From Flavobacteriales bacterium (GTDB taxonomy: Bacteria > Bacteroidota > Bacteroidia > Flavobacteriales > Flavobacteriaceae): a stretch of 64,000 bases of DNA. Below, in pieces: positions 14,025 through 62,937 of the stretch; positions within the stretch are counted from its first letter, which is position 1, and each line of letters opens with the position of its first letter. The stretch lies in NCBI GenBank assembly GCA_027066995.1, contig JAMOMQ010000166.1, positions 192-64,191 on the forward strand, read 5' to 3'. The position numbers and the translations under genes are program-made. The notes under the pieces were generated by a model. That model was not told the DNA's origin. It saw nothing but the letters and a program-made list of their open reading frames with translations, and ran no database searches.

Positions 14025-14441
14025 TCAAATCTCAAAAGACTTAAAAATACGGGCACTGGAACGTCCCGGTGCCTTAACTTCTATATCTAAAAAATAACCA
14101 AACGGGGTTTGCGTTGCCTTATAATCGGAATTTTGCAAACGTTGTTCTACCGCATCAAACAAATCTTTTGTCACGTGCGGATTGGCTTTACTATTAGACA
14201 AATGAGCAAACGAATGTAAAATAATATGCTTGGTTTCATTTTTTTTAGCCGCCCATTTTAGACTCTTAACCAATTTGGTTTCAAAATATTTCGAATTTGC
14301 TTCATCTTCCTTTTCCATTTGTATAAAACCTACCAAAACATTATCATAAGTTTTCGCCTCGGTAAAATCCGGTAAATCAAGTAAGGTTTTGATTTGTGGT
14401 TTATAAGCAAACCGGTCACAATAAATCATTAACAGTTTCAT
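14025..14441 (-). CDS. Free-standing homolog of the archaeal-type threonyl-tRNA synthetase editing domain (DTD-like fold)
   Basis: 138 aa. MKLLMIYCDRFAYK, VLVGFIQMEKEDE, HSFAHLSNSKANP and TPFGYFLDIEVKAPG match the blocks I recall from archaeal ThrRS N-terminal editing domains (MRVLLIHSDY.EYE, FAHLS, PFGYY). Confidence 0.6.
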   Translation of the reverse strand: MKLLMIYCDRFAYKPQIKTLLDLPDFTEAKTYDNVLVGFIQMEKEDEANSKYFETKLVKSLKWAAKKNETKHIILHSFAHLSNSKANPHVTKDLFDAVEQRLQNSDYKATQTPFGYFLDIEVKAPGRSSARIFKSFEI

Positions 14442-38717: not shown

Positions 38718-39668
38718 ATGATAAAAAAATTAATTCTCTTTTCCGGTTTACTTTTGTCTCAGATATTTTATGCACAAAATATATTGGGTATAGATGTGTC
38801 ACATCATCAAGGTTCTATTAACTGGACACTGGTAGCTAACGACGGTAAAGTTTTTGCTTATTGTAAATCTACCGAAGGTTTTACTTATGACGATCCCAAT
38901 TTTCAAACTTATATGACCAACGGACACAATGCCGGTGTGGTTATGGGTGCCTACCATTTTGCCCGTCCCGATAACAATAGTGCTATTGATGAAGCCAATC
39001 ATTTCTTGTCTGTAGCGGGTAATTATATCGGTGACGGCTACTTACCGCCGGTATTGGACTTTGAAGATCCTAACACATCTACACATTTGGATCAAATATA
39101 CAGCTCACAAGGATTGACCAATTGGATACAAACTTGGCTTAACAGAGTTGAAAGCGTCTCCGGTGTTAAACCTGTTATCTATACAAACAGCCATTATGCC
39201 AATTTTTTACAGAGTTCTTTAAATACTTATGGTTTGTGGATAGCCAAACCCGGCACCAGCCCCACTACACCTCCTACCAATATGGGAATTTGGAATGATT
39301 GGCAATTTAAACAATACTCATGGCAAGGTAATGTCAACGGCATATCCGGTTATGTCGATTTAGATGTTTTTAACGGCACAACTTCAGACTTCCTTAATTT
39401 AACGGCTCTTGACAATTTTACACAACAACCACTAAATATTTATCCCAATCCCGTTGAAAATATATTAAATTTAAAATTTGAAAATAATTTAACAATCAAG
39501 CAGTTGGATATTTATGACAGCAATGGCCGGTTGATAAAAAGCTTTTCCGGAAATTATAGCCAAATACCTGTAAATTCATTACAGCCAGGTTTTTATATTT
39601 TACATATCCAGACAAAAAATGGCAGAGATTTCAGACTCAAATTTATAAAAAAACAAGGCGTTTTATAA
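38718..39668 (+). CDS. GH25 muramidase (lysozyme) with a T9SS C-terminal sorting domain
   Basis: GIDVSHHQGSINW ... AYCKSTEG ... GAYHFARP is typical of GH25. C-terminal LNIYPNPVENILNL ... GFYILHIQTKNG ... KFIKK is a T9SS CTD. Confidence 0.85.
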   Translation: MIKKLILFSGLLLSQIFYAQNILGIDVSHHQGSINWTLVANDGKVFAYCKSTEGFTYDDPNFQTYMTNGHNAGVVMGAYHFARPDNNSAIDEANHFLSVAGNYIGDGYLPPVLDFEDPNTSTHLDQIYSSQGLTNWIQTWLNRVESVSGVKPVIYTNSHYANFLQSSLNTYGLWIAKPGTSPTTPPTNMGIWNDWQFKQYSWQGNVNGISGYVDLDVFNGTTSDFLNLTALDNFTQQPLNIYPNPVENILNLKFENNLTIKQLDIYDSNGRLIKSFSGNYSQIPVNSLQPGFYILHIQTKNGRDFRLKFIKKQGVL

Positions 39669-39806
39669 ACCCGTTCTTTCCTGTTTTTTAAATACTAAAT
39701 TTAAAATGATAACATTTGCTTATTTATATTTAACCTTAACTAAGGTCAAATAATTTTTTTATATTTTTATACATCAAAATATCTCTAATAAAAAAAAACA
39801 AATCTC

Positions 39807-41378
39807 ATGAAAAACAAAATCCTTATAAACTTATTATTATTAATTGGTGTTCAATTGACTTTTAGCCAAAATAAAATTGATAATATCCAATTAAAATGGA
39901 GTCCGGTATTTAATGATCATAGAATGAATGCTTTTAAATATCTCGGAAAAGATACTCAAAATAACATTTATTTCAATCAAAAAGATTTTACTTCAAAAAG
40001 CAATTTTACTTCAAATTTATCTACTAAATTGAGCAAATTGAATAAAAATCTATTAAAAAAAGATTATAAAGTTAAGTTCGATAAAAAAACATATCCCATA
40101 TTTATGTTAATGTTGAATAAAGAATTGCACCTTATTTCAACAACAAAAGACAAAGAAAGACAAAAAACATTTTTTATAGATCAAACTATAAATAAAAAAT
40201 CTTTTAATGTAAGTAAGCAACAATCAAAATTAATTGAAATAGATTTTAAAAATGATAAAAAATATATCCTGTCCGATATTAAACATTATTTTTCGCCGGA
40301 TTCTACCAAACTATTAATTAAATATGTTTTTTCCGGAAAAGGAAAAGAAAAATTTTATCTTGGTTTACATGTTTTTGATACTAACTTGAACAAGTTGTGG
40401 GGGAAAAAAATACAGATGCCTGTCGTAAAAAGATATTTTAAGCTACTTGATTTCAAAGTTGATAATGACGGAAAAGTATTTGTATTAGGAAAAGTATACA
40501 AGAACAACAGAAAAAATGATTATTACCGTAAGAAAAAGAACTTCTATTTAACGGTTCTTGCCTATAATAATGGAAGCAAAATGAAAGAATATAAAATTAA
40601 CGGCCATCAAAATTTATTTGATGCTAAACTCAAAATCGGTAATGATTCAAACCTTATAATTAGTGGTCTTTATTCCAAAGATAAGTCTTTAGGTGCAGAC
40701 GGTTATTTTTTTATGAAGATAGACACTAAACAACAAAAAGTGTTATATAACAAATACGAAAAATTTAACTTGGACTTACTAACGGAAGGAATGGATGAAA
40801 AGGAAAAAAAGAAAACATTAAAATTAATTAAAAAAGATAAATTCAAAGGTTTGGAACACCAAATCATTAAAAATGTCGTAGCAAAACCTGATGGTGGTGT
40901 TATTATTTTTTCAGAATATAATCACTTTGAAGAGTCTTTAAATTTTTACAAGTATGGCACTTTTGATAAAAATGGGACTAAAGAGTTAAGTTTTTCGTAT
41001 GGTAATATTTTAATTTTAAATCTTGACGAAAAAGGAAATATTATTTGGCATAAGACTATTAATAAATTTCAATACGCAGAAAATCTATATATTAATGAAG
41101 CTATGTCTTTTATGGTGATTGATCGCAAAGATAAAATTTACATTATCTATAATGGTAAAGGAAAAACGCATAGAAAAAAAGATGCTATTACTAAGTTAAA
41201 AATAATTGATAAAGCTGACGGATCAGTTGACACCAAAGTATTATTTAAAATGAAAGATAAAAAAGTTTTGTTCATACCCAAGTTTAGTATAAAAATTGAT
41301 AAAGACGAATATATACTTGTTAACCATAATAAAGCAAAAAAATCTTATAGGTATGCAAAACTAAAATTTGTGGATTAG
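39807..41378 (+). CDS. Secreted Lys/Asn-rich hypothetical protein (AT-rich orphan)
   Basis: Signal peptide. 523 aa, very Lys-rich. Recurrent D-G-K/G-hydrophobic beta-strand patterns suggest a repeat/propeller-like fold. Noticeably more AT-rich than its neighbours (by eye). Confidence 0.6.
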   Translation: MKNKILINLLLLIGVQLTFSQNKIDNIQLKWSPVFNDHRMNAFKYLGKDTQNNIYFNQKDFTSKSNFTSNLSTKLSKLNKNLLKKDYKVKFDKKTYPIFMLMLNKELHLISTTKDKERQKTFFIDQTINKKSFNVSKQQSKLIEIDFKNDKKYILSDIKHYFSPDSTKLLIKYVFSGKGKEKFYLGLHVFDTNLNKLWGKKIQMPVVKRYFKLLDFKVDNDGKVFVLGKVYKNNRKNDYYRKKKNFYLTVLAYNNGSKMKEYKINGHQNLFDAKLKIGNDSNLIISGLYSKDKSLGADGYFFMKIDTKQQKVLYNKYEKFNLDLLTEGMDEKEKKKTLKLIKKDKFKGLEHQIIKNVVAKPDGGVIIFSEYNHFEESLNFYKYGTFDKNGTKELSFSYGNILILNLDEKGNIIWHKTINKFQYAENLYINEAMSFMVIDRKDKIYIIYNGKGKTHRKKDAITKLKIIDKADGSVDTKVLFKMKDKKVLFIPKFSIKIDKDEYILVNHNKAKKSYRYAKLKFVD

Positions 41379-41390
41379 ATTTTATTTTTT
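41251..41390 (+). repeat. Direct repeat copy 1 (last 126 nt of the orphan gene plus 12 nt downstream)
   Basis: 140 bp, identical to 41817..41956 except for 2 substitutions. Confidence 0.95.
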
Positions 41391-41816
41391 CCTGTTTTCA
41401 ACAATAGGTCACCTAATAAATATAGGTATAGACTATTCTATATTTAATAATACGAAAAAGGAAGCTAACATAAATAAAATTTAACGACAATCACGTTAGA
41501 AGCAGCAATACCCATAAGAGGTTCTTGCGTTAAATTTATGATTTTTGAAACGTTAAAGGCTCTGCTGTTCGAAGTGTCCGAAGGCACGTAGGGCACAAGT
41601 TCAGAGCATTTAGTGGAAAAAATCTATAAATTTAGCAAGGTTCTCTTAAGGTGTCCTTTTTTGCTACTTTTTTGGACAAGCAAAAAAGTTGAATAAAATA
41701 TAAGTTGAATAAAATACAAATTAAAATAATCGGGTCACCAAAAATATATAAATAATATTAAATAGCTATTTTTTAGCAACTTACAGAAACTATATTAAAA
41801 TCATGTCGAAAACAGG
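41391..41816 (+). mobile_element. 426-bp non-coding insert bounded by 11-bp terminal inverted repeats (MITE-like or remnant integrative element)
   Basis: The left end cctgttttcaa and the right end tcgaaaacagg (reverse complement cctgttttcga) sit exactly at the junctions with the two 140-bp direct repeats. No ORF of 60 aa or more. Confidence 0.4.
41505..41690 (+). ncRNA. Candidate structured RNA (long imperfect hairpin plus a terminator-like hairpin)
   Basis: 41512-41546 pairs with 41618-41651 (~31 bp). It has G-U pairs on the plus strand that would be C-A mismatches on the minus strand. Inner hairpin gtgtc-cgaa-ggcac. Distal hairpin cttttttgc / gcaaaaaag at 41656-41688. Confidence 0.35.
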
Positions 41817-41956
41817 TGAAAGATAAAAAAGTTTTGTTTATACCCAAGTTTAGTATAAAAATTGATAAAGACGAATATATACTTGTTAGCCATAATAAAG
41901 CAAAAAAATCTTATAGGTATGCAAAACTAAAATTTGTGGATTAGATTTTATTTTTT
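41817..41956 (+). repeat. Direct repeat copy 2 (orphan copy of the gene 3' end)
   Basis: Matches 41251..41390. The substitutions are ttc>ttt (synonymous) and aac>agc. Confidence 0.95.
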
Positions 41957-42112
41957 TAATTCATTTAACCATACCTAAATTTACATAATAAGATTTATAC
42001 AGTCATTTTAAGATGTTTTGATTGTGTAAAATTGTTGCCGGGTAGTATCACTAATTATTAAGTCATTTAGTTATTGCAACAAACTTATTCTTTTAAAACA
42101 AACAGCTTATAA

Positions 42113-49748: not shown

Positions 49749-49780
49749 AAAGTGGTAAAAAGTGGTAAAAAGTGCAAAAA
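49749..49780 (+). promoter_or_regulatory. Candidate MraZ operator: three direct 10-bp repeats
   Basis: aaAGTGGTAAAA AGTGGTAAAA AGTGCAAAAA with exact 10-bp phasing, immediately upstream of a TAATTTTG box and mraZ. Confidence 0.55.
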
Positions 49781-49786
49781 AAATAG

Positions 49787-49794
49787 TAATTTTG
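49787..49794 (+). promoter_or_regulatory. Candidate -7 box (TAATTTTG) of the dcw promoter
   Basis: Exact TAnnTTTG match 24 nt upstream of the mraZ ATG. Confidence 0.45.
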
Positions 49795-49817
49795 AATACT
49801 TAATTAAACGTCAAAAA

Positions 49818-50282
49818 ATGCAACCACTCAATGGCACATATTATTGCAAAATGGATTCTAAAGGTAGAATAATGCTGCCTGCCGAATTGCGCAAGCAATT
49901 ATCTGATTTGCAAATGGATAGTTTTGTGCTTAAACGAGCAGTTTTTCATAATAATTTAGAAATGCATCCTAAAAACGAATGGAGCAAATTAATGGAAAAA
50001 TTAAACAAGCTCAACCGTTTTAAGAAAAAAAACATAGACTTTCTGACACGATTTTTGGCAGGCGTGCGCAATGTTAATATTGACGGGACAGGGCGTCTGC
50101 AAATTCCGAAAGATTTGGTAGCTGTAGCCGGTCTTAAAAAAGAAGTGGTCATTGCTTCCAGCATTAACATACTTCAAATTTGGGATAAAGATGCTTATGA
50201 ACAATTCTTACAAGCCAGTGTCGAAGACTTTTCCGACTTGGCCGAAGAGGTAATGGGTGATATAGATTTTGATAATGAGTAG
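49818..50282 (+). CDS. mraZ: Transcriptional regulator MraZ
   Basis: Start moved to MQPLNGTYYCKMDSKGRIMLP. Two SpoVT/AbrB-like halves (DSKGRIMLP and DGTGRLQIP). Confidence 0.92.
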   Translation: MQPLNGTYYCKMDSKGRIMLPAELRKQLSDLQMDSFVLKRAVFHNNLEMHPKNEWSKLMEKLNKLNRFKKKNIDFLTRFLAGVRNVNIDGTGRLQIPKDLVAVAGLKKEVVIASSINILQIWDKDAYEQFLQASVEDFSDLAEEVMGDIDFDNE

Positions 50283-51204
50283 TTCCAATCAAACATATCA
50301 TGTGCCGGTATTGCTCAAAGAAAGTGTGGACGGCTTAAACATTAGGTCTAATGGCACTTATGTAGATGTAACTTTTGGCGGGGGTGGTCATTCGAAAGAA
50401 ATTTTAAAGCGCTTGGGCCCCGAAGGCCGTTTGTATGCTTTTGACCAAGATGCCGATGCCGCACAAAACAAAATAGACGATCCACGGTTTACATTAATTG
50501 AAGCCAATTTTGCCAATCTTAAAAATTATTTGAGACTTGAAGGCGTCAAAGAGATAGACGGGTTACTAGCAGACTTGGGTATTTCATCCCATCAAATCAA
50601 TAAACCCACGCGAGGTTTTTCAACACGTTTTGATGAAAAATTGGACATGCGAATGGATAAATCAGCCGAATTATCTGCCTATGATATCATCAACAAGTAT
50701 GACGAATATGAACTTAGAAAACTGTTTTGGCAATACGGTGATTTGAAAAATGCAGCCACTTTGGCCAAGAGTATTGTCAAAGCACGGGAAGAAGCCCCTA
50801 TTAAAACCACCGGCCAACTCAATGAAATTGTCGCCAAACATTTTCCAAAATCGAAAATGAATAAATTCTTGGCCAAATTGTATCAAGCTATCAGAATTGA
50901 AGTAAACGGCGAGATTGAAGCTCTAAAGAATATGTTGCAACAAGCGGCAATGATAATTAAACCCGGCGGCCGGTTGAGTGTAATATCCTATCACTCTCTC
51001 GAAGACCGCTTGGTCAAGCGATTTATTAGAGACGGCCTGTTTGAGGGTCAACCTGAAAAAGATTTTTACGGCAATATCAGTGTGCCTTTTAAAAAGACAG
51101 GCAAACTAATTGTGCCGGATGATGACGAAATTGCTGCAAACCCACGGGCACGCAGCGCCAAACTGCGCATAGCGGAACGAACACAAGCACCTTATAAGCT
51201 ATGA
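50269..51204 (+). CDS. rsmH: 16S rRNA (cytosine1402-N4)-methyltransferase
   Basis: YHVPVLLKESV, DVTFGGGGHS, DLGISSHQ, ISYHSLEDR and NPRARSAKLR motifs. Confidence 0.95.
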   Translation: MIMSSSNQTYHVPVLLKESVDGLNIRSNGTYVDVTFGGGGHSKEILKRLGPEGRLYAFDQDADAAQNKIDDPRFTLIEANFANLKNYLRLEGVKEIDGLLADLGISSHQINKPTRGFSTRFDEKLDMRMDKSAELSAYDIINKYDEYELRKLFWQYGDLKNAATLAKSIVKAREEAPIKTTGQLNEIVAKHFPKSKMNKFLAKLYQAIRIEVNGEIEALKNMLQQAAMIIKPGGRLSVISYHSLEDRLVKRFIRDGLFEGQPEKDFYGNISVPFKKTGKLIVPDDDEIAANPRARSAKLRIAERTQAPYKL

Positions 51205-51506
51205 GTATTTGGTCTATCATTAAAGCGGATTATTTGACCAATGAAAACGCCACAAAAAACTGGCTGTTTATATTGATGTTGGTAGTAATGGGATTGACTA
51301 TTATCAATCTGTCACATTCGGCCGATGCCAAGGTTAAAAAAATAGTTAAACTCAATAAGGAAGTGAAAGCTTTACGCTCCGAATATGTCGAACTCAAAGC
51401 CAGAGTCATTAAACGCAAAATGGCGAGTGATGTATATACAAGATTACAATCGGAAGGTTTTATACTATCAAAAAAACAACCGGTAAAAATTAAATTAAAA
51501 AAGTAA
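51201..51506 (+). CDS. ftsL: FtsL-like cell division protein
   Basis: 101 aa with a single TM helix followed by a coiled-coil. It sits between rsmH and ftsI. ATGA overlap with rsmH. Confidence 0.7.
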   Translation: MSIWSIIKADYLTNENATKNWLFILMLVVMGLTIINLSHSADAKVKKIVKLNKEVKALRSEYVELKARVIKRKMASDVYTRLQSEGFILSKKQPVKIKLKK

Positions 51507-53468
51507 ATGAATCAAAACAATGCAAATATTACCAAAAGAAGTATGACCGTTTTTGCGGGCTTATTCTTGTTTGCAATACTCATTGTCATACAATTGATTC
51601 GCATACAATATATTGACGGCAATAAATACCGTGCTTTGGCTCAAAAATATACCGTAAAAGAATTTACCATTAAGGCCAATCGCGGTAATATTTATACTGC
51701 AAAAGGTAATATTTTGGCAACTTCTGTTCCAAAATATGATATCGCTTTTGACCCGACCGCACCTTCTACCAAAAACTTCAATCGTTATATTGACGGCTTG
51801 TGTGTGCAATTATCAAGATTTACAGGTAAACCGCAAGCCCAATGGAAAAGAGCTTTTGTCAAGGCACGTCAAAATAACCGGAAATATATCAAAGTAGCCA
51901 AAGGCATTGACTACTCCGATTATCAACGTATTAAAAAATTCCCGTTATTCAAATTAGGTATGAATAAAGGCGGATTTATAGCCGAATTGCACAGCGAACG
52001 CAGTTATCCTCTCGGGGGAGTGCTCAAACGCACCATCGGTTTTGATCGTGGTAAAGGCAACCGTGCCGGTATTGAAGGCGCCTATGCTACTTACTTACGT
52101 GGTAAAGACGGCATGCAAAAAAAACAAAAAATAAAATATGGCGTTTGGAAACCTTTAAGCGACATAAATGATATTGAACCGCAAGACGGTTACGATGTGA
52201 TTACTAATATCGATATTGACATGCAAGATATGGCACATCAAACCTTGCTAAAACAATTGCAAAAATTTGAAGCCGACCATGGCAGCTTGGTCATCATGGA
52301 TGTCAAAACCGGTGCTGTCAAAGCAATGGTCAATTTGGGCAAAACACAATCGGGGCGTTATGAAGAACTTAGAAATTATGCCGTTTACGAAACACACGAA
52401 CCCGGTTCCACCTTTAAACTTTTTTCGGTAATGGCATTGCTCGAAGACAAAGTGGCTGACACCTCCGATATCGTTGATACCGGCAAGGGCGTTTACCAAA
52501 TTTATAACAAGCGGGTCCGCGATGCCCACCATGGCGGCATGGGTAAACTTACCCTAAAACAAGTGCTTGAAAAAAGCTCAAATGTAGGTGTCGTTAAAAT
52601 GGTATATGAACATTATAAAGACCATCCTGAAAAATTTGTAAACCGCCTCTATAATTTCGGCATTCACGAAAAAGTAAAAATTGACATCAAAGGAGAAGGG
52701 CAACCACATATTCCGGACCCCAAAGATGACAATTGGAGTGGTATTTCTTTACCCTGGATGGCTTACGGATACGGTGTGGAATTAACCGATATACAAATTT
52801 TAACTTATTATAATGCCATTGCCAATAACGGTAAGGTTATGAGACCTTATCTGGTTCAACAAATCAAATCCTTTGATAAGACCATCAAAAAATTTAAACC
52901 CGAAGTGTTAAATCATTCGCTGGCTTCAAAAGAAACAATCGGTAAAATGCAAGACATGCTCAAGGGGGTTGTTTTGCGTGGCACCGCTACCAATATTAAA
53001 AATCCGTATGTCAGCATAGCCGGTAAAACAGGCACGGCACAAACCGAATATTGGAAAGGTAAAGGACAATACATTGCTTCATTTGTAGGTTATTTTCCGG
53101 CTGAACAACCAAAATATTCCATGATAGTGGTGATACACAAACCCAATCCGGAAAAAGGCTACTACGGCAATATTGTAGCTGCCCCTGTCTTTAAAACACT
53201 TGCCGAATATATTTACGGCAAAACCCCTCGTAAAGTTGAACTTGCCGAAGCCCGTAGTCAAACCGAAACAAAAACCGAAAAAATAGCACAAAAATATAAA
53301 ACCGTGATGCCCGATTTACACGGAATGCCATCAAAAAGTGCTGTATATATTTTAGAAAACATGGGATTAAAAGTACGCCTGAACGGTAGTGGCAAAGTGG
53401 CAAAACAATCGATTCCAAGAGGTATAAAAGTCAAAAAAAATCAAGTAGTTGAACTTAAATTAATATGA
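51507..53468 (+). CDS. ftsI: Penicillin-binding protein 3 / peptidoglycan D,D-transpeptidase FtsI, with a C-terminal PASTA domain
   Basis: SxxK (GSTFKL), SxN (KSSNVG) and KTG (GKTGTA) motifs, plus a C-terminal PASTA-like MPDLHGM...LKVRLNGSGKV. Confidence 0.93.
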   Translation: MNQNNANITKRSMTVFAGLFLFAILIVIQLIRIQYIDGNKYRALAQKYTVKEFTIKANRGNIYTAKGNILATSVPKYDIAFDPTAPSTKNFNRYIDGLCVQLSRFTGKPQAQWKRAFVKARQNNRKYIKVAKGIDYSDYQRIKKFPLFKLGMNKGGFIAELHSERSYPLGGVLKRTIGFDRGKGNRAGIEGAYATYLRGKDGMQKKQKIKYGVWKPLSDINDIEPQDGYDVITNIDIDMQDMAHQTLLKQLQKFEADHGSLVIMDVKTGAVKAMVNLGKTQSGRYEELRNYAVYETHEPGSTFKLFSVMALLEDKVADTSDIVDTGKGVYQIYNKRVRDAHHGGMGKLTLKQVLEKSSNVGVVKMVYEHYKDHPEKFVNRLYNFGIHEKVKIDIKGEGQPHIPDPKDDNWSGISLPWMAYGYGVELTDIQILTYYNAIANNGKVMRPYLVQQIKSFDKTIKKFKPEVLNHSLASKETIGKMQDMLKGVVLRGTATNIKNPYVSIAGKTGTAQTEYWKGKGQYIASFVGYFPAEQPKYSMIVVIHKPNPEKGYYGNIVAAPVFKTLAEYIYGKTPRKVELAEARSQTETKTEKIAQKYKTVMPDLHGMPSKSAVYILENMGLKVRLNGSGKVAKQSIPRGIKVKKNQVVELKLI

Positions 53469-54952
53469 TAAAATTACAAAACATATTAGAAGATATTAAA
53501 ATTATCAAGCAATCTGCGCCCGCTGATATTAATATTAACCATATTCAATATGACTCACGTCAAGTGCAATCCGGTGATGTGTTTGTGGCTATAAAAGGTA
53601 TCAATACCGACGGACATCAATATATTGATAAGGCTATTGATAAAGGAGCTATCGCTGTTGTTGTAGAAAAACGGATTGATAATCTGCCTAATAATATTTT
53701 GCAAATACAAGTTGATGATTCACATCGGGCTTTATCTGTAATGGCATCCAATTATTATGGTCGGCCGTCAGAACAACTAAAACTAGTCGGTGTGACAGGC
53801 ACCAATGGCAAAACAACCACAGCCAGCTTAGCTTACAAACTCTTTAAAAAAGCCGGATATAAAGCCGGTTTATTGTCCACTGTTGCCATTTTAATAGACG
53901 GCAAGACTTACCCGGCCACACATACAACACCCGATCCGCTCGTGATTAATTATTATTTGGATCAAATGCTTAAAGCCGGCGTTACTCATGTATTTATGGA
54001 AGTCAGTTCGCACGGATTGGATCAGAAACGAACGGCAGGCCTAAACTTTGACGGCGGAGTATTTACCAATTTGACACATGATCACCTGGATTATCATGAA
54101 ACATTTATCAATTACCGTAATACCAAAAAACTTTTCTTTGATCAATTGTCCAAAGATGCTTTTGCTTTAGTCAATGCCGATGACAAAAACGGCCTGTTTA
54201 TGCTACAAAATACCGCTGCCCGCAAATTGACTTATGCCCTGAAAAATCCGGCAGATTACAAAGCCAAAATTTTGGAACAAAATTTTTCAGGTATGTTACT
54301 AACAATCAATAACATGGAAGTTTGGGTACGATTGGTGGGACGTTTCAATGCTTATAACATATTGGCGGTCTTTGGCATTGCCGACCAATTGGGTATGGAG
54401 CCTTTTGACATATTACAAATTATCAGTGAATTGCACAGTGTTGACGGTCGTTTTGAATTGATTTTATCACCCGAAGGTAAAATAGCCATAGTAGATTATG
54501 CACATACACCCGATGCTTTGGAAAATGTCTTAAAAACCATCAATGACATACGACCCAACAACAACGAAAAACTGATTACTGTAGTGGGTGCCGGTGGCAA
54601 TAGAGACAAAACCAAACGTCCGGAAATGGCTGAAGTGGCCTCCCGGTTGAGTAATAGTGTCATATTTACTTCTGACAATCCGAGAGATGAAGTGCCCGAC
54701 CAAATCATAGACGATATGGAAGCAGGCGTACCGCCCGAACATTACAAAAAAACATTGCGGATTACCGACCGCCGCCAAGCCATAAAAGCAGCTGCCGCCT
54801 TGGCCAACACCGGCGATATTATTTTAATAGCTGGTAAAGGTCATGAAGACTATCAAATCATAAAAGGGGTCAAACAACATTTTGACGACCGTGAAGAAAT
54901 AAAAAAAGCATTCGGATTAATAAAAGAACAAGGCAACAGCCTAACAAAATAA
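53465..54952 (+). CDS. murE: UDP-MurNAc-L-Ala-D-Glu:meso-DAP ligase
   Basis: GVTGTNGKTT P-loop and a DNPR motif (DAP specificity). Full length, 495 aa. Confidence 0.93.
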   Translation: MIKLQNILEDIKIIKQSAPADININHIQYDSRQVQSGDVFVAIKGINTDGHQYIDKAIDKGAIAVVVEKRIDNLPNNILQIQVDDSHRALSVMASNYYGRPSEQLKLVGVTGTNGKTTTASLAYKLFKKAGYKAGLLSTVAILIDGKTYPATHTTPDPLVINYYLDQMLKAGVTHVFMEVSSHGLDQKRTAGLNFDGGVFTNLTHDHLDYHETFINYRNTKKLFFDQLSKDAFALVNADDKNGLFMLQNTAARKLTYALKNPADYKAKILEQNFSGMLLTINNMEVWVRLVGRFNAYNILAVFGIADQLGMEPFDILQIISELHSVDGRFELILSPEGKIAIVDYAHTPDALENVLKTINDIRPNNNEKLITVVGAGGNRDKTKRPEMAEVASRLSNSVIFTSDNPRDEVPDQIIDDMEAGVPPEHYKKTLRITDRRQAIKAAAALANTGDIILIAGKGHEDYQIIKGVKQHFDDREEIKKAFGLIKEQGNSLTK

Positions 54953-54958
54953 AGAATT

Positions 54959-56179
54959 ATGTTATATTACTTTTTTCAACATATATGGCCTGATTTTCCC
55001 GGTGCGGGATTGTTCAACTACCTGTCATTCCGGTCGGGAATGGCTTTTGTAACCGCCTTGTTATTTTCTTTGTTGGTGGGTAAAAAAATCATAGGCCGGT
55101 TAAGACAATTGCAAATTGGTGAAACAGTGCGTGACTTGGGTCTGGAAGGTCAAAAATCTAAGGAAGGCACACCCACCATGGGAGGCATTATCATTATTTT
55201 GGCCACCTTGATTCCGGTGTTACTATTCAACGATTTAAAAAATATTTACATCCAACTTTTACTTATCACGTTAATTTGGATGGGATTTATAGGTTTTACC
55301 GATGATTACATCAAGGTCATCAAAAAAAACAAAGAAGGTTTGGCCGGTAAATTCAAAATTCTGGGACAAATAAGCTTAGGTGTAGTCATTGGCAGTGTCA
55401 TGTTAATTAATGAAAATATTACCATTCGGACCGAAGACTTTTCCGCCCAAACACAACAAGTTCAAAAAAAATTGGGTGAAAATTTTCGACCGGCAGAAAA
55501 ATCACTCAAAACCACCATTCCTCTTTTCAAAAACAATGAGTTCAATTATGAAAACATTCTGAAAAGCCTCAAATCATCGTGGGCAAAATATACATGGTTA
55601 CTATTCATACTGATTGTTATATTTATAATTACGGCCGTATCCAATGCCGCCAATTTAACCGACGGTATAGACGGTCTGGCAGCCGGCACTTCTGCCATTA
55701 TCATATTGGCTTTGGCTCTTTTAGCTTGGATATCCGGCAATATTATGATATCCGATTATCTTAATATCATGTATATCCCCGGTATTGGTGAGGTATCTGT
55801 ATTTATAAGTGCTTTTGCCGGTGCATTAATCGGATTTTTATGGTTCAATGCCTACCCGGCACAAGTTTTTATGGGTGATACCGGAAGCTTAACCATTGGC
55901 GCTATTATTGCCGTTGTTGCTTTATTTATCCGCAAAGAATTATTGATACCGGTATTGGCAGGTATTTTTGTCATTGAAAACGCTTCGGTAATCATTCAAC
56001 GTTTTTGGTTTAAATATACCAAAAAACGCTATGGCGAAGGAAGGCGGGTTTTTAAAATGGCCCCTATTCACCATCATTTTCAAAAATTAGGTTGGCACGA
56101 AAACAAAATAGTTATTCGCTTTTGGATAGTCGGAATAATTCTGGCAGCCATTAGTATCATCAGTTTAAAGGTAAGATAA
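54959..56179 (+). CDS. mraY: Phospho-N-acetylmuramoyl-pentapeptide transferase
   Basis: 406 aa, 10 TM segments. [25 protein letters not shown] and APIHHHF motifs. Confidence 0.95.
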
Positions 56180-56199: not shown

Positions 56200-56721
56200 A
56201 TGCAAACACAAACAAATCATAAAAATTTAGCCGCTATGACAGCACAATTATTACAGAATCGACGGCGAACATTGAAAAAACCCTTTCAATCGTTTATCAA
56301 TGTACCTCATAGAATGCAGCAGGTTCGTGTCAAAAATGGCGTTGTTTTTATCAACGATTCAAAAGCTGAAAATGTCAATGCAACCTATTTTGCCCTGCAA
56401 AGCATTAAAAAACCGGTGATATGGATTGCCGGCGGAGACGATTCAAATACCAATTATTGGGAATTGATGTCCTTGGTGCGTCAAAAAGTATCGCATATAA
56501 TCATGATTGGACAAAACAATGACCGTTTATATCAATTATTTGCTCCTGTTATAGACCATATTTATAAGGTAAAAACAATGCGTGAAGCAGTACAGCTAAG
56601 CTACCAGTTTGCAGAACAAGGTTGCAGTGTATTATTATCTCCGGCTTGCAAACCGGATTATGCTTTTGTAGATTATCGAGACCGCGGAGAACAATTTATT
56701 AAAGCCGTTAATAAATTATAA
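56200..56721 (+). CDS. murD: MurD C-terminal-domain-only ORF (truncated murD; remnant or neofunctionalised fragment)
   Basis: 173 aa. PHRMQQV..NGVVFINDSKAENV, WIAGGDDSNTNY and LLSPACKPDYAFVDYRDRGEQF align to the MurD C-terminal domain only. There is no N-terminal Rossmann domain and no GxxGKT central domain, and only 20 nt separate it from the mraY stop. Confidence 0.75.
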   Translation: MQTQTNHKNLAAMTAQLLQNRRRTLKKPFQSFINVPHRMQQVRVKNGVVFINDSKAENVNATYFALQSIKKPVIWIAGGDDSNTNYWELMSLVRQKVSHIIMIGQNNDRLYQLFAPVIDHIYKVKTMREAVQLSYQFAEQGCSVLLSPACKPDYAFVDYRDRGEQFIKAVNKL

Positions 56722-56722
56722 A

Positions 56723-57913
56723 ATGATAAAATTTATAAAGAACATATCAGGCGACCGACAATTATGGGTTTATACCATATTATTAATGCTATTTTCATTT
56801 TGGATTGTTTATAGTGCCAGTAGTAATTTGGCCAATGTTTACGGAAAATCGTCCCCCTTATTTTTTGGCATTAAACACTTTATACATGTTTCTATCGGTT
56901 TCTTGATTATTTTCTTTACGCACAAATTCAATCCGAAATACTTTTCTCATTTATCACGGATTGCTATGCCCGTTATAGTTGTGGTTTTATTATTTACATT
57001 AACCCGTGGTATGACTATGGGAGGTGCCAATGCCAGTCGTTGGATTCATTTGCCCGGACTGGGCAGTGTGCAACCATCTACTATTGCTTTTGTGTTTTTA
57101 ATGATGTTTAGCGCCCGCTTTTTTGGCAAAAACGATTTGAGTAAAATAGGTTTTATCGAAAGTATCAAAAGGTATTGGATATGGGTGTTTGCCGTAGTAG
57201 GACTAATATTACCTGCCAATTTGTCAACAGCGGTATTAATATTTGCCATGGTGGTTTTAATCAGCATTATAGCAGGTTATCCGTTTAAAGATTTGTTCAA
57301 AGTTTTTGGTATCAGTATGCTGGGAGTGATATTTCTAATTTTGGTTTTAAAAGCTTTTCCCAACAGAATGTCTAACCGTTTGGACACTTGGCAAAGCCGT
57401 ATTGAAAGCTTTTTTGATTCGTCAGACAACTCAAAAGAAATAAAGTTAGATGATAAAAATTATCAAAAAACGCAAGCAAAAATTGCGATAGCCAAAGGCG
57501 GTTTGTTTGGGTTTAGACCGGGCAAAAGCGTGCAAAAAAACTTTTTACCGCAATCGGTTTCTGATTTTATCTATGCCATTATTATTGAAGAATACAGTTT
57601 GACCGGCGGCCTAATCATCTTGTTTGTGTATTTGCTATTAGGATTACGAATGTTTTTTGTAGCTAAAAAAACGCCCGACAGATATTACAAACTCTTGGTA
57701 TTGGCGGTGGGGCTTCCCATTATTGTGCAAGCATTGGCTAATATGGCTGTAGCGGTAGGTTTGTTTCCGGTTACGGGACAGCCTTTACCACTATTGAGTT
57801 CCGGAGGCACGGCCATTTGGATGAGTAGTTTTGCTATTGGCGTCATCTTAAGTGTCAGTCGTGTAACCGAACAAAAAGAACAAAAAGATTTAGATGATTT
57901 TATAACAGAATAA
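56723..57913 (+). CDS. ftsW: SEDS-family peptidoglycan glycosyltransferase FtsW
   Basis: 396 aa, about 10 TM segments. SDFIYAIIIEE and PLPLLSSGGT motifs. Confidence 0.92.
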   Translation: MIKFIKNISGDRQLWVYTILLMLFSFWIVYSASSNLANVYGKSSPLFFGIKHFIHVSIGFLIIFFTHKFNPKYFSHLSRIAMPVIVVVLLFTLTRGMTMGGANASRWIHLPGLGSVQPSTIAFVFLMMFSARFFGKNDLSKIGFIESIKRYWIWVFAVVGLILPANLSTAVLIFAMVVLISIIAGYPFKDLFKVFGISMLGVIFLILVLKAFPNRMSNRLDTWQSRIESFFDSSDNSKEIKLDDKNYQKTQAKIAIAKGGLFGFRPGKSVQKNFLPQSVSDFIYAIIIEEYSLTGGLIILFVYLLLGLRMFFVAKKTPDRYYKLLVLAVGLPIIVQALANMAVAVGLFPVTGQPLPLLSSGGTAIWMSSFAIGVILSVSRVTEQKEQKDLDDFITE

Positions 57914-57919: not shown

Positions 57920-59026
57920 ATGAACCCCAGTAATCGACATATAAAGGTAATTATAAGCGGCGGAGGAACCGGCGGACATATTTTTCCGGCTTTGGCTATT
58001 GCCAACGAAATCAAAAACCGGTATCCCCATGCCGATATTCTTTTTGTAGGTGCCAAAGGCCGTATGGAAATGGAAAAAATTCCGGCACACGGCTACCCTA
58101 TTAAAGGCTTATGGATATCCGGTATCAATCGTTCTAAAATGTGGAAAAATATCACATTCCCTTTTAAATTGATTTCAAGCATCTGGAATGCCAAAAAAAT
58201 CATCAAAAATTTTAAGCCTGATATGGTTATAGGCACCGGAGGATTTGCCAGTGGACCCGTATTGTATGCCGCCCAACAAAAAGGTATTCCCACTTTTATA
58301 CAAGAACAAAATTCGTATCCGGGCATTACCAATAAATTACTGGCCAAAAAAGCCCGTAAAATTTATACGGCCTATGACGGACTGGAGCGCTTTTTTGATG
58401 CAGATAAAATTGTCAAAACAGGCAATCCTGTCCGGCAAAACCTTATAAATACCAATGTGGAAAAAAATAAAGCCTTACAATATTTTGGGCTCAAACCTCA
58501 GTATAAAACCATATTGTCTATTGGAGGTAGTCTGGGAGCACATCCTCTTAACGAAGGCATTAAAGATATTTTGAATCAAATCAGACAAAACAATTACCAA
58601 TTGATATGGCAAACCGGCCCCAATGATTATGAAAATTATAAAAATTTAAGTGACGATAAGATAAAAGTAATGCCATTTATAACTGAAATGCAAAATGCCT
58701 ATACCGCAGCCGATCTTATTATTTCGCGTGCTGGTGCCGGCACCATTTCCGAATTGACATTGATAGGTAAACCGGTTATATTGGTGCCTTCACCCTATGT
58801 AGCTGAAGACCATCAAACAAAAAATGCCAAAGCTCTGGAAACTAAAAAAGCGGCTGTTCTGATACCTGAAAAAAAATTGCAAACAGAACTTTGGCCCGGC
58901 ATAAAAAGAATATTTGAAAATGAAGAAGAAGCGCAGTTATTAAAACAAAACATCAAAGCTTTGGCGCAACCCGAAGCTGTTCAAAATATAGTAGATGATA
59001 TACTCAGAAGCATAAGTAAAAAGTAA
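57920..59026 (+). CDS. murG: UDP-GlcNAc:lipid I N-acetylglucosaminyltransferase
   Basis: SGGGTGGHIFPALA N-terminus and a GT28 C-terminal block (RAGAGTISEL). Confidence 0.95.
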   Translation: MNPSNRHIKVIISGGGTGGHIFPALAIANEIKNRYPHADILFVGAKGRMEMEKIPAHGYPIKGLWISGINRSKMWKNITFPFKLISSIWNAKKIIKNFKPDMVIGTGGFASGPVLYAAQQKGIPTFIQEQNSYPGITNKLLAKKARKIYTAYDGLERFFDADKIVKTGNPVRQNLINTNVEKNKALQYFGLKPQYKTILSIGGSLGAHPLNEGIKDILNQIRQNNYQLIWQTGPNDYENYKNLSDDKIKVMPFITEMQNAYTAADLIISRAGAGTISELTLIGKPVILVPSPYVAEDHQTKNAKALETKKAAVLIPEKKLQTELWPGIKRIFENEEEAQLLKQNIKALAQPEAVQNIVDDILRSISKK

Positions 59027-59725
59027 ATGAAACAAACATTTATAATCATAGCAACCTTATTCTTGTTTATCCTGACATTGGTGTTAGGCCGGTATTTTAA
59101 TGCTGTTTCGCAACAAGAACGTATACAACAAACACAGGTTTATGTCTTTCCTATGGACAAAACTTTTATACTGCCTCAAGAGGTTTCCAAACTTATGCCT
59201 ATAAATGATAGTGTGTATAAACAGATAGATATTGCCGCCATTGAAAAACAATTGGAACAAAATGCTTATATTGACAATGCCGAGGTATATAAAGATTTGA
59301 ACGGCCGGTTAACAGCCGAAATTTCTCAATACAAACCAATTGCCAGAGTCATTGGAAACAAATCATATTATATTGACTATCAAGGAAATAAAAAACCATT
59401 GTCTGACCACTATACCGAAAATGTTATTTTAATATTTGGCGATATAAATAGCAATATTAAAAAACAGCTCATTAACTTAATACATCAAATAGAAAGCGAC
59501 CCGAATTTAAAACAAATAATTTCGGAAGTGCATATTAATGATAAACAGGTTGTAATCAAAACCGATCAATTGTCAGCAGATATCAGCATTGATATACTAC
59601 AAAATATTGATAAACAACTGGATAAATTAAAAGCCATTTATAGCTATTTGGTCAAAACAAATAAAACCAATCAATATCAAAAAATAGATTTAAGATTTAA
59701 AAATCAAGCAGTTTGCAAAAAATAA
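59027..59725 (+). CDS. ftsQ: Cell division protein FtsQ
   Basis: N-terminal TM helix, a POTRA-like region, and a position upstream of ftsA. Confidence 0.8.
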   Translation: MKQTFIIIATLFLFILTLVLGRYFNAVSQQERIQQTQVYVFPMDKTFILPQEVSKLMPINDSVYKQIDIAAIEKQLEQNAYIDNAEVYKDLNGRLTAEISQYKPIARVIGNKSYYIDYQGNKKPLSDHYTENVILIFGDINSNIKKQLINLIHQIESDPNLKQIISEVHINDKQVVIKTDQLSADISIDILQNIDKQLDKLKAIYSYLVKTNKTNQYQKIDLRFKNQAVCKK

Positions 59726-61162
59726 ATGCCTATGAACACATCACATTTTCCTTCCAACCAAGAGCGACCGGAGCAAGAGTCTCCATTTAGAGATCAAGAC
59801 GACCGGTATGAAGTGGTCGGTCTAGATATCGGCACCACCAAAGTTGTGGCTATAGTCGGCAGAAAAAACCAATTCGGTAAAGTAGAAATACTCGGCTATG
59901 GCAAAGCACCCAATAACAAAGGGGTAAAAAACGGTGTGGTTATCAACCTGACCGAAACCGTTAAAGCCATTAACGAAGCTATTCAAAAAGCCGAATATAA
60001 TGCCAAAATCAAAATTAAAAAAGTTGTCGTCGGTATAGCGGGGCAACATATTCGCAGTATTCAAACCAGCGAATACATTATGCGTGAACATCCAGAAGAT
60101 ATTATCACGCAAGAAGAAATAGATAAACTCATCAATCAGGTTAAACGTATTCACGTTGAACCCGGTGAAAAAATTATACACGCTTTGCCGCAAGAATTTA
60201 AAGTGGATGACGAAGGCAATATACCCGAAATGCCGATTGGGATGGCCGGCACGCGTTTAGAAGCCAATTTTCATGTGGTTGTTGGCAAAGTTGCTTCCAT
60301 TCAAAACTTAGTCCGGTGTGTTCAAATGGCCAATTTGGAAGTTGTAGATGTTACTTTAGAGCCTTTGGCGTCGGCCGAATCGGTATTGGTAGATGAAGAG
60401 CGCGAAGGTGGCACTGTTTTGATAGATATAGGTGGTGGCACCACAGATATTGCCATCTTTAAAAACAATATCATACGCCATACAGCTATTATTCCCTATG
60501 GTGGCAATATTATAACAAAAGACTTGGCCAACGGCATTTATGTCTTAGAACGTAATGCCGAAGCCATCAAAGTCCGGTTCGGTTCGGCTTGGCCTGCAGA
60601 AAACAGTGATATGGAAGTGGTATCCATACAAGGATTGCCCGGCAGACCACCGGTAGAAATAAGCTTAAAAAGCATATCGCGTATAATCAAAGCACGCGTA
60701 GAGGAAATTATACAACTGGCAGATATAGAAATCAAACGCTACCAAGAAATCAGTAACGATCCGGTTTTATTAGGTGGTATAGTCCTAACCGGTGGCGGTG
60801 CCGAACTTAAACATTTACCGCAACTGGTAAACTTGATTACCGGCTTATATACCCGCGTCGGCAAACCCGTACAACACTTGGCAGGTGGTACCGAAGAAGA
60901 TCTGATTAGTCCTATGTATGCTACAGCAGTCGGTTTACTAATGAAAGGCTTAACCGACAAACCAAATTACGAAACCTTTGAATATGAAGAGTATGAAGAA
61001 AAACCAGCATATAACAAAACTGAAAAAACAGAATTACCAATAGATAAACAAACGGAACAATCCGAAGAAAAAGAACCGGTTGAAACCGGCGAAAGTATAG
61101 ATAAAAAAAGAAAAAAATCGCTGTATCAAGCTATGATGGAATTTTTAAAAAAATTAGAATAA
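59726..61162 (+). CDS. ftsA: Cell division protein FtsA
   Basis: GLDIGTTKVVAIVG and DIGGGTTDIAIF actin-fold motifs, plus a C-terminal amphipathic helix (SLYQAMMEFLKKL). Confidence 0.95.
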   Translation: MPMNTSHFPSNQERPEQESPFRDQDDRYEVVGLDIGTTKVVAIVGRKNQFGKVEILGYGKAPNNKGVKNGVVINLTETVKAINEAIQKAEYNAKIKIKKVVVGIAGQHIRSIQTSEYIMREHPEDIITQEEIDKLINQVKRIHVEPGEKIIHALPQEFKVDDEGNIPEMPIGMAGTRLEANFHVVVGKVASIQNLVRCVQMANLEVVDVTLEPLASAESVLVDEEREGGTVLIDIGGGTTDIAIFKNNIIRHTAIIPYGGNIITKDLANGIYVLERNAEAIKVRFGSAWPAENSDMEVVSIQGLPGRPPVEISLKSISRIIKARVEEIIQLADIEIKRYQEISNDPVLLGGIVLTGGGAELKHLPQLVNLITGLYTRVGKPVQHLAGGTEEDLISPMYATAVGLLMKGLTDKPNYETFEYEEYEEKPAYNKTEKTELPIDKQTEQSEEKEPVETGESIDKKRKKSLYQAMMEFLKKLE

Positions 61163-61311
61163 ATCATTGTAAATCAAATGCTTGATAAGATAATTAATAC
61201 CAAATTAATGCAAAAATAATATCTATTTTAATTTGAAATATAAACCAGTTTGGTATAAACTAAACAGAGATAATAAAAATTTAAAATACTGTATTGTCAA
61301 AAACAAAAAAT

Positions 61312-62937
61312 ATGAACGATTTTAATTTGAATTTGGAATTTGATTTGGAAAAAAACAAATCCAATGTAATAAAAGTAATTGGTGTTGGCGGCGGCGGTGG
61401 CAATGCCGTAAATTACATGTATCAAAAGGGTATAAAAGATGTAGATTTTGTCGTGGTCAATACCGATTCGCAAGATTTGTCTAAAAGTCCGGTGCCGGTC
61501 AAAATACAAATAGGCAAATCCTTAACCGAAGGTTTGGGCGCCGGTGCCAATCCGGAAATCGGCGAGAAAGCTGCCATTGAAGATATAGAGGCCATCAAAA
61601 GTGTGCTGGAGAACAATACCAAAATGATATTCATCACAGCCGGCATGGGCGGAGGAACAGGCACAGGTGCAGCTCCTATAATTGCCAAATTGGCCAAAGA
61701 AATGGGTATATTAACGGTCGGAATAGTGACCAGTCCGTTTATGTATGAAGGTAAAAAAAGAAATATTTATGCCCAAAAAGGTATTGAAAATTTGAGAGAA
61801 TATGTAGACTCTTTGATTATAATCAACAATAATAAACTAAGAGAAATTTACGGCAACCTGACTTACAAACAAGCCTTTGCCAAATCCGATGAAGTCTTAG
61901 CCTCGGCCGCTACCAGTATTGCCGAGGTTATCACCCGCAACTATACGGTTAATGTTGATTTTAGAGATGTTAAAACCGTTTTGGAAAACAGTGGCACTGC
62001 CATTATGGGATCAGCCAAAGCTGCCGGCAATAACCGCTCTAAAGAAGTCATTATGAATGCTTTGGATTCGCCTTTGCTTAATGACAATAAAATTACCGGA
62101 GCTAAAAATGTCCTACTTCTGATTTTATCCGGCAGCGAAGAACATGAAATTACCATGGACGAAATAAGTGAAATCAACGATTTTGTGCAGATGGAAGCCG
62201 GTCACAGCGCTGATGTCATTTTAGGTATCGGAGAAGATGAAAGCTTAGGCGATGCCATTTCCGTTACTATTATTGCGACCGGATTTAATAAAAACCAGCA
62301 AGACCTGATTACCAATGCCGAACCGGATAAAATTGTTCATATATTAAAAGACGAAAACGGTAGCGATATAAATATGACAGCCGATAACCAAATGGTTGAA
62401 AACACTTATGCAACAAGTGAAGTTATCTCCGAAAAACAACCGGATATCGTAGCAGAAGAAGATGATTATGGCAATACACAATTGACCATTGATTACAAAC
62501 TGGAACCGGAATCAAAACAACAAACCGGCACAACCCAACCGGACAATTACGACTTAAATATTGAGCTAAAACAAAAAGAACCACAAACGCAGCAACCAAA
62601 AGTAGTGGAAGAAAAAACGGCACAACAGCCTTTGTTATTCAATTTTGAAGAAAAAATGCCGGAAAATGACTTTAACGATGTTGAAGATTTGTCAGAATTG
62701 CCCATTGAAATTGCATTAAAATTGCGTAAAAAACGCAAAAGCTATATAAAAAATTATGCAACTAAACTCGACGACAAATTATTGGAAAAAGAAGAAATGC
62801 CTGCTTTTAAAAAGAAAGGTATTGATGTTGACTTAACCCCTAAATCATCAACTGAAATACACAAAATTGAAATGGATGTCGATGGTAATTTTAAATTAAA
62901 AGATAGCAATTCGTTTTTAGAGGATAATGTCGATTAA
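61312..62937 (+). CDS. ftsZ: Cell division GTPase FtsZ
   Basis: Start moved to the ATG at 61312 (MNDFNL...). GVGGGGGNAVN and GGGTGTGAAP motifs, a long acidic linker, and the conserved peptide EMPAFKKKG followed by a Bacteroidota-type tail. Confidence 0.96.
   Translation: MNDFNLNLEFDLEKNKSNVIKVIGVGGGGGNAVNYMYQKGIKDVDFVVVNTDSQDLSKSPVPVKIQIGKSLTEGLGAGANPEIGEKAAIEDIEAIKSVLENNTKMIFITAGMGGGTGTGAAPIIAKLAKEMGILTVGIVTSPFMYEGKKRNIYAQKGIENLREYVDSLIIINNNKLREIYGNLTYKQAFAKSDEVLASAATSIAEVITRNYTVNVDFRDVKTVLENSGTAIMGSAKAAGNNRSKEVIMNALDSPLLNDNKITGAKNVLLLILSGSEEHEITMDEISEINDFVQMEAGHSADVILGIGEDESLGDAISVTIIATGFNKNQQDLITNAEPDKIVHILKDENGSDINMTADNQMVENTYATSEVISEKQPDIVAEEDDYGNTQLTIDYKLEPESKQQTGTTQPDNYDLNIELKQKEPQTQQPKVVEEKTAQQPLLFNFEEKMPENDFNDVEDLSELPIEIALKLRKKRKSYIKNYATKLDDKLLEKEEMPAFKKKGIDVDLTPKSSTEIHKIEMDVDGNFKLKDSNSFLEDNVD

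Follow-up and report, generated by a model that had tools for sequence, protein, structure and literature searches.

A Flavobacteriales division and cell wall gene cluster that lacks murC and retains only the C-terminal domain of murD

MurC and MurD, the ligases that add L-Ala and D-Glu to the peptidoglycan precursor, are considered to be essential and universal single-copy steps in the making of peptidoglycan, and they serve as antibiotic targets. Here, we describe a division and cell wall (dcw) cluster from which murC is missing and in which murD is reduced to a stub. It lies in a 64,000-nucleotide stretch of DNA, here referred to as the window, from a Flavobacteriales bacterium of the family Flavobacteriaceae (NCBI GenBank assembly GCA_027066995.1, contig JAMOMQ010000166.1, positions 192 to 64,191 of the forward strand). 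An earlier note on the window, made from the sequence alone, had drawn attention to the abutting murG and ftsQ genes, the missing murC, and a truncated murD. The cluster comprises the following features, in window coordinates (ORF, open reading frame):

49752 to 50282, + strand: mraZ, first gene of the dcw cluster (ORF; PF02381 MraZ on the identical gene in L001)
50269 to 51204, + strand: rsmH (mraW) (ORF; PF01795 Methyltransf_5 on the identical gene in L001)
51201 to 51506, + strand: ftsL-like gene (PF19579 FtsL_2 on the identical gene in L001)
51507 to 53468, + strand: ftsI (PBP3) (PBP_dimer, Transpeptidase, and PASTA domains; 64 to 77% identity in clade relatives)
53465 to 54952, + strand: murE, meso-diaminopimelate-adding ligase (Pfam Mur_ligase N, M, and C domains)
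54959 to 56179, + strand: mraY (Glycos_transf_4 and MraY signature)
56200 to 56721, + strand: murDc, a MurD C-terminal-domain gene of 173 amino acids (Pfam Mur_ligase_C only)
56723 to 57913, + strand: ftsW, 396 amino acids (FTSW_RODA_SPOVE, E value 8e-61)
57920 to 59026, + strand: murG, complete and unfused, 368 amino acids (Glyco_transf_28 N- and C-terminal domains, E values 1e-37 to 1e-39)
59024 to 59029, + strand: TAA/ATG junction, the usual murC slot in Bacteroidota (base sequence, ORFs, and locus comparison)
59027 to 59725, + strand: ftsQ-like gene, 232 amino acids (synteny, N-terminal transmembrane helix, and a weak NCBIfam FtsQ match, E value 6e-4)
59726 to 61162, + strand: ftsA (FtsA and SHS2_FTSA domains)
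61294 to 62937, + strand: ftsZ (Tubulin and FtsZ_C domains)

The sequence at positions 59021 to 59032 is AAG TAA ATG AAA, with the murG TAA at 59024 to 59026 and the ftsQ ATG from 59027, and the spacer between the two genes is therefore 0 nucleotides (nt), just as the earlier note had read it. Such spacing is unremarkable because it is normal for genes of this operon to touch: there is likewise no gap between ftsL and ftsI or between ftsQ and ftsA, and rsmH overlaps ftsL, as ftsI does murE. The remarkable aspect of the junction is its gene content, that is, the missing murC. The protein encoded downstream of the junction is 43 to 59% identical among clade relatives and 23 to 35% identical to outgroup FtsQ, and its gene occupies the FtsQ position of every related locus. 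A scan for promoter and terminator consensus sequences found nothing above chance, using the sigma-70 consensus, which is unsuited to Bacteroidota.

The canonical Bacteroidota dcw order is mraZ-rsmH-ftsL-ftsI-murE-mraY-murD-ftsW-murG-murC-ftsQ-ftsA-ftsZ. The window cluster is like it in the order, orientation, and tight packing of the retained genes and in the placement of murF, murB, and ddl outside the cluster, and unlike it in the absence of murC and the reduction of murD to its C-terminal domain. The genes murE, mraY, murG, ftsW, and ftsI are intact, as the earlier note described them, and MurE scores 626 bits against the NCBIfam model NF001126 (cut-off, 373), making it a canonical equivalog. 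Each ORF has its own start and stop, so neither a MurG-MurC nor a MurD-FtsW chimera is present; the murC/murD fusion that had been suggested is likewise not found within the cluster, where MurG, MurE, MraY, and FtsW all have ordinary lengths and domain contents. The description of the operon as otherwise complete does not stand, since none of the Bacteroidota loci inspected has murF, murB, or ddl within its cluster. The position of these three genes also means that absence from the operon does not equal absence from the genome.

Neither tblastn nor a sensitive hmmsearch found any MurC-like sequence within the 64-kb window. The slot between murG and ftsQ or ftsA holds murC in 53 of the 72 measurable loci of our scan of species representatives and in all 47 measurable loci of a later metagenome scan, so the earlier statement that murC is missing from its usual place is borne out. 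The same murC-bearing loci carry full-length murD wherever its slot can be measured, except for four Bacteroidales loci, and the murD slot is short in each of the 19 loci without murC. Across all truncated loci, including the window and 9 kb to its left, the sensitive hmmsearch detected no Mur ligase besides MurE. Furthermore, no ORF restricted to the N-terminal and central domains of MurD was found near the truncated loci, and neither mpl nor a MurD2 or MurL gene was found in the readable DNA.

Relatives were found with MurG as the query, with one genome per GTDB species, and the hits were annotated by tblastn. Four assemblies of the same species, deposited separately (three NCBI metagenome-assembled genomes [MAGs] and one from ENA), show an identical layout on near-identical contigs. 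Eleven further species-level genomes (L005 to L014 and L037) share it, with MurG proteins that are 63 to 75% identical; all are MAGs labeled Flavobacteriales or Flavobacteriaceae, and many have hydrothermal-vent-type bin names. In each of the 11, the order is murE-mraY-(murD stub of 160 to 190 amino acids)-ftsW-murG-ftsQ, without murC, and the murG-ftsQ spacer ranges from 0 to 367 nt. A metagenome scan with an alignment of the stubs added just one more clade member (L091), about 47 canonical controls, and the loci with small ORFs described below; it yielded no intermediate that retains murC. The arrangement is old, fixed, and lineage-wide in a Flavobacteriales lineage of family rank, for which MAGs are as yet the only source, and this agrees with the suggestion in the earlier note of a lineage-specific change. 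The note had also proposed comparing dcw synteny across the family and had named recurrence in many relatives as one of two signs of simple operon reshuffling; the arrangement does recur in many relatives, both in these 11 genomes and in the Lutimonas group described below.

The junction had been said to bear no scar, and we found none: a permissive tblastn search of the intergenic gaps of the relatives recovered no relics of murC or murD, only noise. Those gaps contain hairpins or repeats resembling miniature inverted-repeat transposable elements (MITEs). The MITE-like inverted repeats, for example GTCATTCCGACAGAGTCCCGACGCAAGTCGGGATGACGAGGAATCTC, lie in the spacers of clade relatives that flank the murD stub and precede ftsQ (L005:2581-2790 and 5587-5990; L006:2671-3110 and 5876-6120; also the spacers of L010 and L014). 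In the same spacers, the heptamer AAATCTG forms runs just 5' of start codons. The window contains neither kind of element.

A second lineage has the same two losses. The Lutimonas group, represented by four genomes, has a murD stub of 180 to 182 amino acids and no murC; its members are Lutimonas saemankumensis DP2N0-7 (L035, a RefSeq isolate by its record title), a closed 2.6-Mb chromosome (L027, CP070731.1), L043, and L046. In the rest of their dcw proteins, these genomes show about 73% identity to an ordinary Flavobacteriaceae isolate whose cluster is canonical. In a neighbor-joining tree of MurD C-terminal domains, the Lutimonas stubs nest among full-length Flavobacteriaceae MurDs, and the window clade forms a separate deep branch; the double loss in the Lutimonas lineage arose separately from that in the window clade. 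Four Bacteroidales loci (L017, L057, L059, and L061) have a murD stub and retain murC. The hidden Markov model score of their MurC is no outlier, and there is therefore no sign of altered function. One of these loci, from a Bacteroidales MAG, has a stop-free ORF of 863 amino acids spanning MurG and MurC (L057:9965-12553), which would be a chimera; such MurG-MurC chimeras have been reported mainly from Actinobacteria. From these comparisons, the cluster has lost the catalytic part of murD on at least three occasions, each time at the same domain boundary, and twice together with murC. Loss of murC is confined to lineages that also have the murD stub.

The remnant of murD, murDc, starts 20 nt after mraY and stops 1 nt before the ftsW ATG. 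It aligns to positions 277 to 440 of the 441 positions of TIGR01087, scores 137.2 bits against a cut-off of 211.95, and consists of the C-terminal domain only rather than the three-domain architecture of MurD. To that extent the earlier description of murD as truncated is correct; a decaying gene it is not. In none of the 24 truncated loci is the reading frame disrupted, and the ratio of nonsynonymous to synonymous substitution rates (dN/dS) for murDc is 0.065 to 0.12 among clade pairs, beside 0.087 to 0.126 for murG and 0.03 to 0.07 for mraY; these values are approximate, as dS is 0.8 to 1.5, near 1. With an intact ORF under purifying selection, murDc is no pseudogene. Differences within the population are very few (one to three nonsynonymous and no synonymous). 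The other wall and division genes, including those for MraY, FtsW, MurG, and FtsI, are also under strong purifying selection. In public data, there are at least 45 distinct clusters (at 90% identity) of proteins of 160 to 178 amino acids that are 51 to 98% identical to murDc of the window, and a search of 1.8 billion representative proteins returned at least 12 separate clusters of stub-type proteins of 181 to 182 amino acids. The stand-alone form of the MurD C-terminal domain is thus a widespread class.

The AlphaFold model of murDc has a mean predicted local distance difference test (pLDDT) score of 88.6 and exceeds 90 for residues ∼38 to 173. The best 33 PDB matches returned by Foldseek are all MurD C-terminal domains, and the best superpositions have root mean square deviations of 1.5 to 2.4 Å across ∼145 columns, so the protein is predicted to have the MurD C-terminal-domain fold. 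The stub begins at the domain boundary in all lineages, and its N-terminal helix is wanting in four clade members.

In Escherichia coli MurD, the D-Glu-binding residues are T321, K348, S415, L416, and F422, and R302, D317, and K319 contact the nucleotide or lie near it (PMC9780078). T321, K348, and S415 are invariant in 45 of 45 full-length Bacteroidota MurDs. In the window-clade stubs, the T321 position is E in 48 of 56 sequences, K348 is kept in only 3, the S415 position is P in 49, and the L416 position is D in 55. The D-Glu-binding residues are also missing from the stubs of Lutimonas and the Bacteroidales, and R302, D317, and K319 are retained in stubs. With its D-Glu residues replaced, the stub is very unlikely to be the C-terminal half of a split D-Glu ligase. 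Taken together, these sequence comparisons suggest that murDc is a functional protein encoded by a conserved stand-alone domain gene and is catalytically dead, and the new conserved acidic residues in the former D-Glu pocket indicate that it has probably acquired a new function. From its position, its tight coupling to ftsW, and similar small genes elsewhere, we infer that its role is most likely noncatalytic and tied to the machinery of ftsW, mraY, and murG, for example as a scaffold or regulator.

Small genes resembling the Mur ligase C-terminal domain also lie upstream of ftsW in other genomes. On two metagenome contigs, an additional MurD C-domain paralogue of 158 to 160 amino acids (L132:8883-9356 and L115:10471-10950) comes after a full-length murD and lies directly 5' of ftsW; it matches hmm positions 304 to 443 with E values of 1e-32 to 1e-35. 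This is a tandem partial duplicate of murD that coexists with the catalytic gene. A second family, without a Pfam match and annotated as hypothetical protein in Crocinitomicaceae, Cryomorphaceae, and other Flavobacteriales, is located between murD and ftsW. Its members are 140 to 160 amino acids long; five loci have an ORF of 153 to 161 amino acids (L103:10493-10951, L153:3651-4118, L170:10471-10947, L148:8482-8952, and L123:10493-10975), and another member is at L172:7001-7423. The ORF overlaps the start of ftsW, follows a full-length murD, and belongs to clusters that also carry murC.

The PDB entries that best match the predicted structure of the second family (pLDDT, 79) are Mur ligase C-terminal domains, including the Mpl domain 3mvn (E value, 1.4e-4; template modeling [TM] score, ∼0.5), MurF 3zl8 (E value, 1e-3), and MurD 4buc (TM score, 0.56), with DHFR-like folds mixed among the matches. 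Profile-profile comparison with the window stub (hhalign) gave a colinear but weak alignment, with a probability of 13 to 18%. The structural models are therefore suggestive of Mur-C-domain-like genes in Crocinitomicaceae and Cryomorphaceae, and the family may be an undescribed dcw accessory protein. These small ORFs are like the window stub in position, size (140 to 160 amino acids), and fold class and unlike it in having full-length murD and murC beside them. Taken together, the two sets of genes indicate that a small Mur-C-domain protein in this position can serve a purpose of its own, apart from MurD catalysis. Natural MurD-FtsW fusions occur in other phyla (PMC10214165) and would be consistent with a functional coupling between the MurD C terminus and FtsW.

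We found no description in the literature of Flavobacteriales without murC or murD, of a MurC-MurD chimera, or of the genomes used for comparison, and the window locus is a variant of the Bacteroidota dcw cluster for which no published account was found. There is a precedent for dispersal within the order: in Capnocytophaga (L016, L018, L019, L031, L032, L034, and L049), murG and murC are separated from mraY, murD, and ftsW. However, the Capnocytophaga genes are full-length and no domain stub is left behind, whereas the window cluster has stayed compact and lacks nothing but murC and the catalytic domains of murD. Natural Mur chimeras (MurG-MurC, MurD-FtsW, MurC-Ddl, and MurE-MurF; PMC10214165) show murD/ftsW and murG/murC to be evolutionarily coupled neighbors, and in the window the genes are unfused. 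An alternative D-Glu route is known from Xanthomonas, in which MurD2 and the epimerase MurL operate and the Glu pocket of MurD2 (R358/E197) is altered, with K348 replaced by R (PMC8788868). MurD2 has all three ligase domains at full length, and reports of it are limited to some Proteobacteria and Actinobacteria (PMC8788868); in the window stub, the catalytic domains are absent and the pocket has been lost rather than retuned.

How these organisms carry out the MurC and MurD steps is most likely explained by relocation, which we consider the probable answer. Under this explanation, the dcw cluster was cleanly stripped of murC and of the murD segment for the N-terminal and central (catalytic) domains, with ftsI, murE, mraY, ftsW, murG, ftsQ, ftsA, and ftsZ kept; the remaining C-domain gene, which has lost the D-Glu pocket, no longer forms part of a ligase; and an ordinary murC and a full-length murD would be encoded elsewhere in the genome, as are murF, murB, and ddl. 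The placement of those three genes and the dispersal in Capnocytophaga make mur genes outside the operon normal in the phylum. Judging from the isolate status of its record, the Lutimonas strain must be able to meet its own needs on ordinary media; the Lutimonas organisms grow, and wall precursors must therefore be made. A canonical MurE implies a normal substrate. Relocation is the most economical explanation because mur genes outside the operon are normal and the isolate is self-sufficient, and it is on these grounds that we infer where the catalytic genes lie.

Several observations weigh against relocation. The murC-less cluster occurs in all of these genomes without any murC or full-length murD having been found: there is none in the ∼83 kb formed by the window with 9 kb to its left and 10 kb to its right and none within ±10 kb of the 23 other truncated loci. 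The cluster lost catalytic murD on at least three occasions, on two of them with murC, a pattern that is somewhat unexpected for random relocation and would fit the spread of a single replacement activity. In addition, a MurC search seeded from an Aureibaculum-like isolate (L039), the nearest relative of Lutimonas at hand, returned no Lutimonas protein among its best 120 matches; this says little, as the matches ended at ∼64% identity and a Lutimonas protein was expected at ∼63%. Four hits of that search on long contigs are canonical clusters of other genera, and the accessions of three named MAG hits differ from that of the MAG with the Lutimonas-like stub.

Of the alternatives to relocation, the one that survives best, which we nevertheless regard as unlikely, is that a noncanonical enzyme supplies the first two stem-peptide steps and makes murC and the catalytic part of murD dispensable, perhaps with the cooperation of the stub. 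Candidates would be an unusual or fused Mur-family ligase, an Mpl-like L-Ala-D-Glu dipeptide ligase, or an unrelated ligase. Catalytic murD was lost independently in the window clade, the Lutimonas group, and two or three Bacteroidales lineages, and murC is gone only where catalytic murD was already gone. This ordered loss, with the catalytic part of murD going first and murC following, leaves real room for a shared replacement activity. No Mur ligase but MurE is in reach of any truncated locus, and new acidic residues are conserved in the old pocket in the window clade (E in place of T321 and D in place of L416). The MurE N-terminal domain (window positions 53465 to 53770) is also more diverged, being 39% identical to that of Flavobacteriaceae, compared with 50% for other Flavobacteriales families, which is a weak and uncontrolled signal; the corresponding values are 67% versus 56% for the central domain and 61% for other families versus 62% for the window clade in the C-terminal domain.

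Against such an enzyme, no candidate gene was seen in the DNA read, the canonical MurE implies an ordinary substrate, and the stub-bearing Bacteroidales retain an ordinary murC. As far as we know, all bacteria studied to date that make peptidoglycan possess MurC together with either MurD or MurD2. Surveys of Mur chimeras list no MurC-MurD fusion (PMC10214165), and MurD2/MurL is unreported in Bacteroidota (PMC8788868). One particular form of the idea, in which an Mpl-like or unrecognized enzyme would ligate a preformed L-Ala-D-Glu dipeptide with the acidic-pocket MurD C-domain as a working part, strikes us as less likely again.

There is little chance, in our judgment, that the organisms depend on salvage, with imported muropeptides or peptides reattached to UDP-MurNAc by Mpl-type recycling that bypasses MurC and MurD. 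The window does encode a secreted muramidase and a fusion protein that includes a NagZ-like domain (see below), and the window clade is known from MAGs alone. However, GH25 and NagZ-like genes are common in Bacteroidota, and no mpl was found in the readable DNA. No enzyme other than Mpl is known to skip the MurC and MurD steps by attaching a ready-made peptide to UDP-MurNAc. Mpl bypasses MurE as well, and yet MurE is conserved in the window and is kept under strong constraint, although the tripeptide route would make it dispensable. The same genes are gone in the Lutimonas lineage, for which the record describes a pure-culture isolate. Salvage is less likely because MurE is retained and Lutimonas is cultured. 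Finally, the major facilitator superfamily (MFS) transporter that might be taken for a muropeptide permease scores higher as a siderophore transporter than as AmpG and adjoins a TonB receptor.

Less probable still is a split MurD, in which the C-domain stub and separately encoded N-terminal and central domains would form a two-piece D-Glu ligase in trans. The start of the stub at a domain boundary in all lineages and the conservation of the ATP-contacting C-domain residues R302, D317, and K319 would suit such an arrangement. The positions T321, K348, S415, and L416, which are invariant in 45 of 45 full-length enzymes, are replaced in all three stub groups, no ORF for the N-terminal and central domains lies nearby, and the N-terminal helix is absent in four clade members, all of which argue against it.

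An artefact or decay, whether by misassembly, recent deletion, or murDc surviving as a pseudogene in a lineage that is losing peptidoglycan, might be suggested by the MAG-type source assembly and by the excess of nonsynonymous over synonymous murDc differences within the population (tiny counts), but it is effectively refuted by the same layout in four assemblies and in another 15 species from two lineages, among which are an isolate and a closed chromosome, by intact ORFs with a murDc dN/dS of ∼0.1, and by the strong constraint on the other wall and division genes.

Other features of the window were recorded alongside the cluster. At 38718 to 39668 (+ strand) is a GH25 muramidase (lysozyme) with a C-terminal sorting domain for type IX secretion (T9SS), possibly a secreted wall-degrading enzyme for feeding on or attacking other bacteria. 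A 994-amino-acid fusion of a GH3 NagZ-like beta-N-acetylhexosaminidase and a beta-lactamase-fold (PBP4B/AmpH-like) domain is encoded at 19670 to 22654 (− strand) and looks like a peptidoglycan turnover enzyme. The MFS transporter, at 896 to 2119, forms part of a − strand region with a TonB-dependent receptor (896 to 4304) and scores 153 bits against the RhtX/FptX siderophore family and 115 against AmpG; given the higher siderophore score and the adjacent receptor, we rejected an assignment to AmpG, and the two genes more probably serve as a pair in siderophore uptake than in the import of muropeptides.

The stand-alone 138-amino-acid protein at 14025 to 14441 (− strand) matches PF08915, the "archaea-specific" editing domain of threonyl-tRNA synthetase, over its entire length with 123 bits, which is unusual in Flavobacteriales. 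A full-length DUF505 protein of 631 amino acids (22881 to 24776, + strand; PF04458, 520 bits) may be another horizontally acquired gene; papers on DUF505 are few and mostly concern archaea (Haloferax). Positions 39800 to 42000 form a low-GC island (25%, compared with ∼36% for the window) that includes an ORF of 523 amino acids without a Pfam match (39807 to 41378).

A family-level lineage and a second lineage with a cultured member have each dropped both murC and the catalytic part of murD from an otherwise rigid dcw operon. At a minimum, this provides an unusually clean natural experiment on the reasons for which dcw gene order is conserved. If it were true that the catalytic genes are absent altogether, the textbook pathway would have an unknown bypass. 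What may matter more is the apparently catalytically dead MurD C-domain protein encoded just before ftsW, which, together with its look-alikes at this position in genomes that have kept murD, points to an undescribed accessory component of the Bacteroidota division and cell wall machinery.

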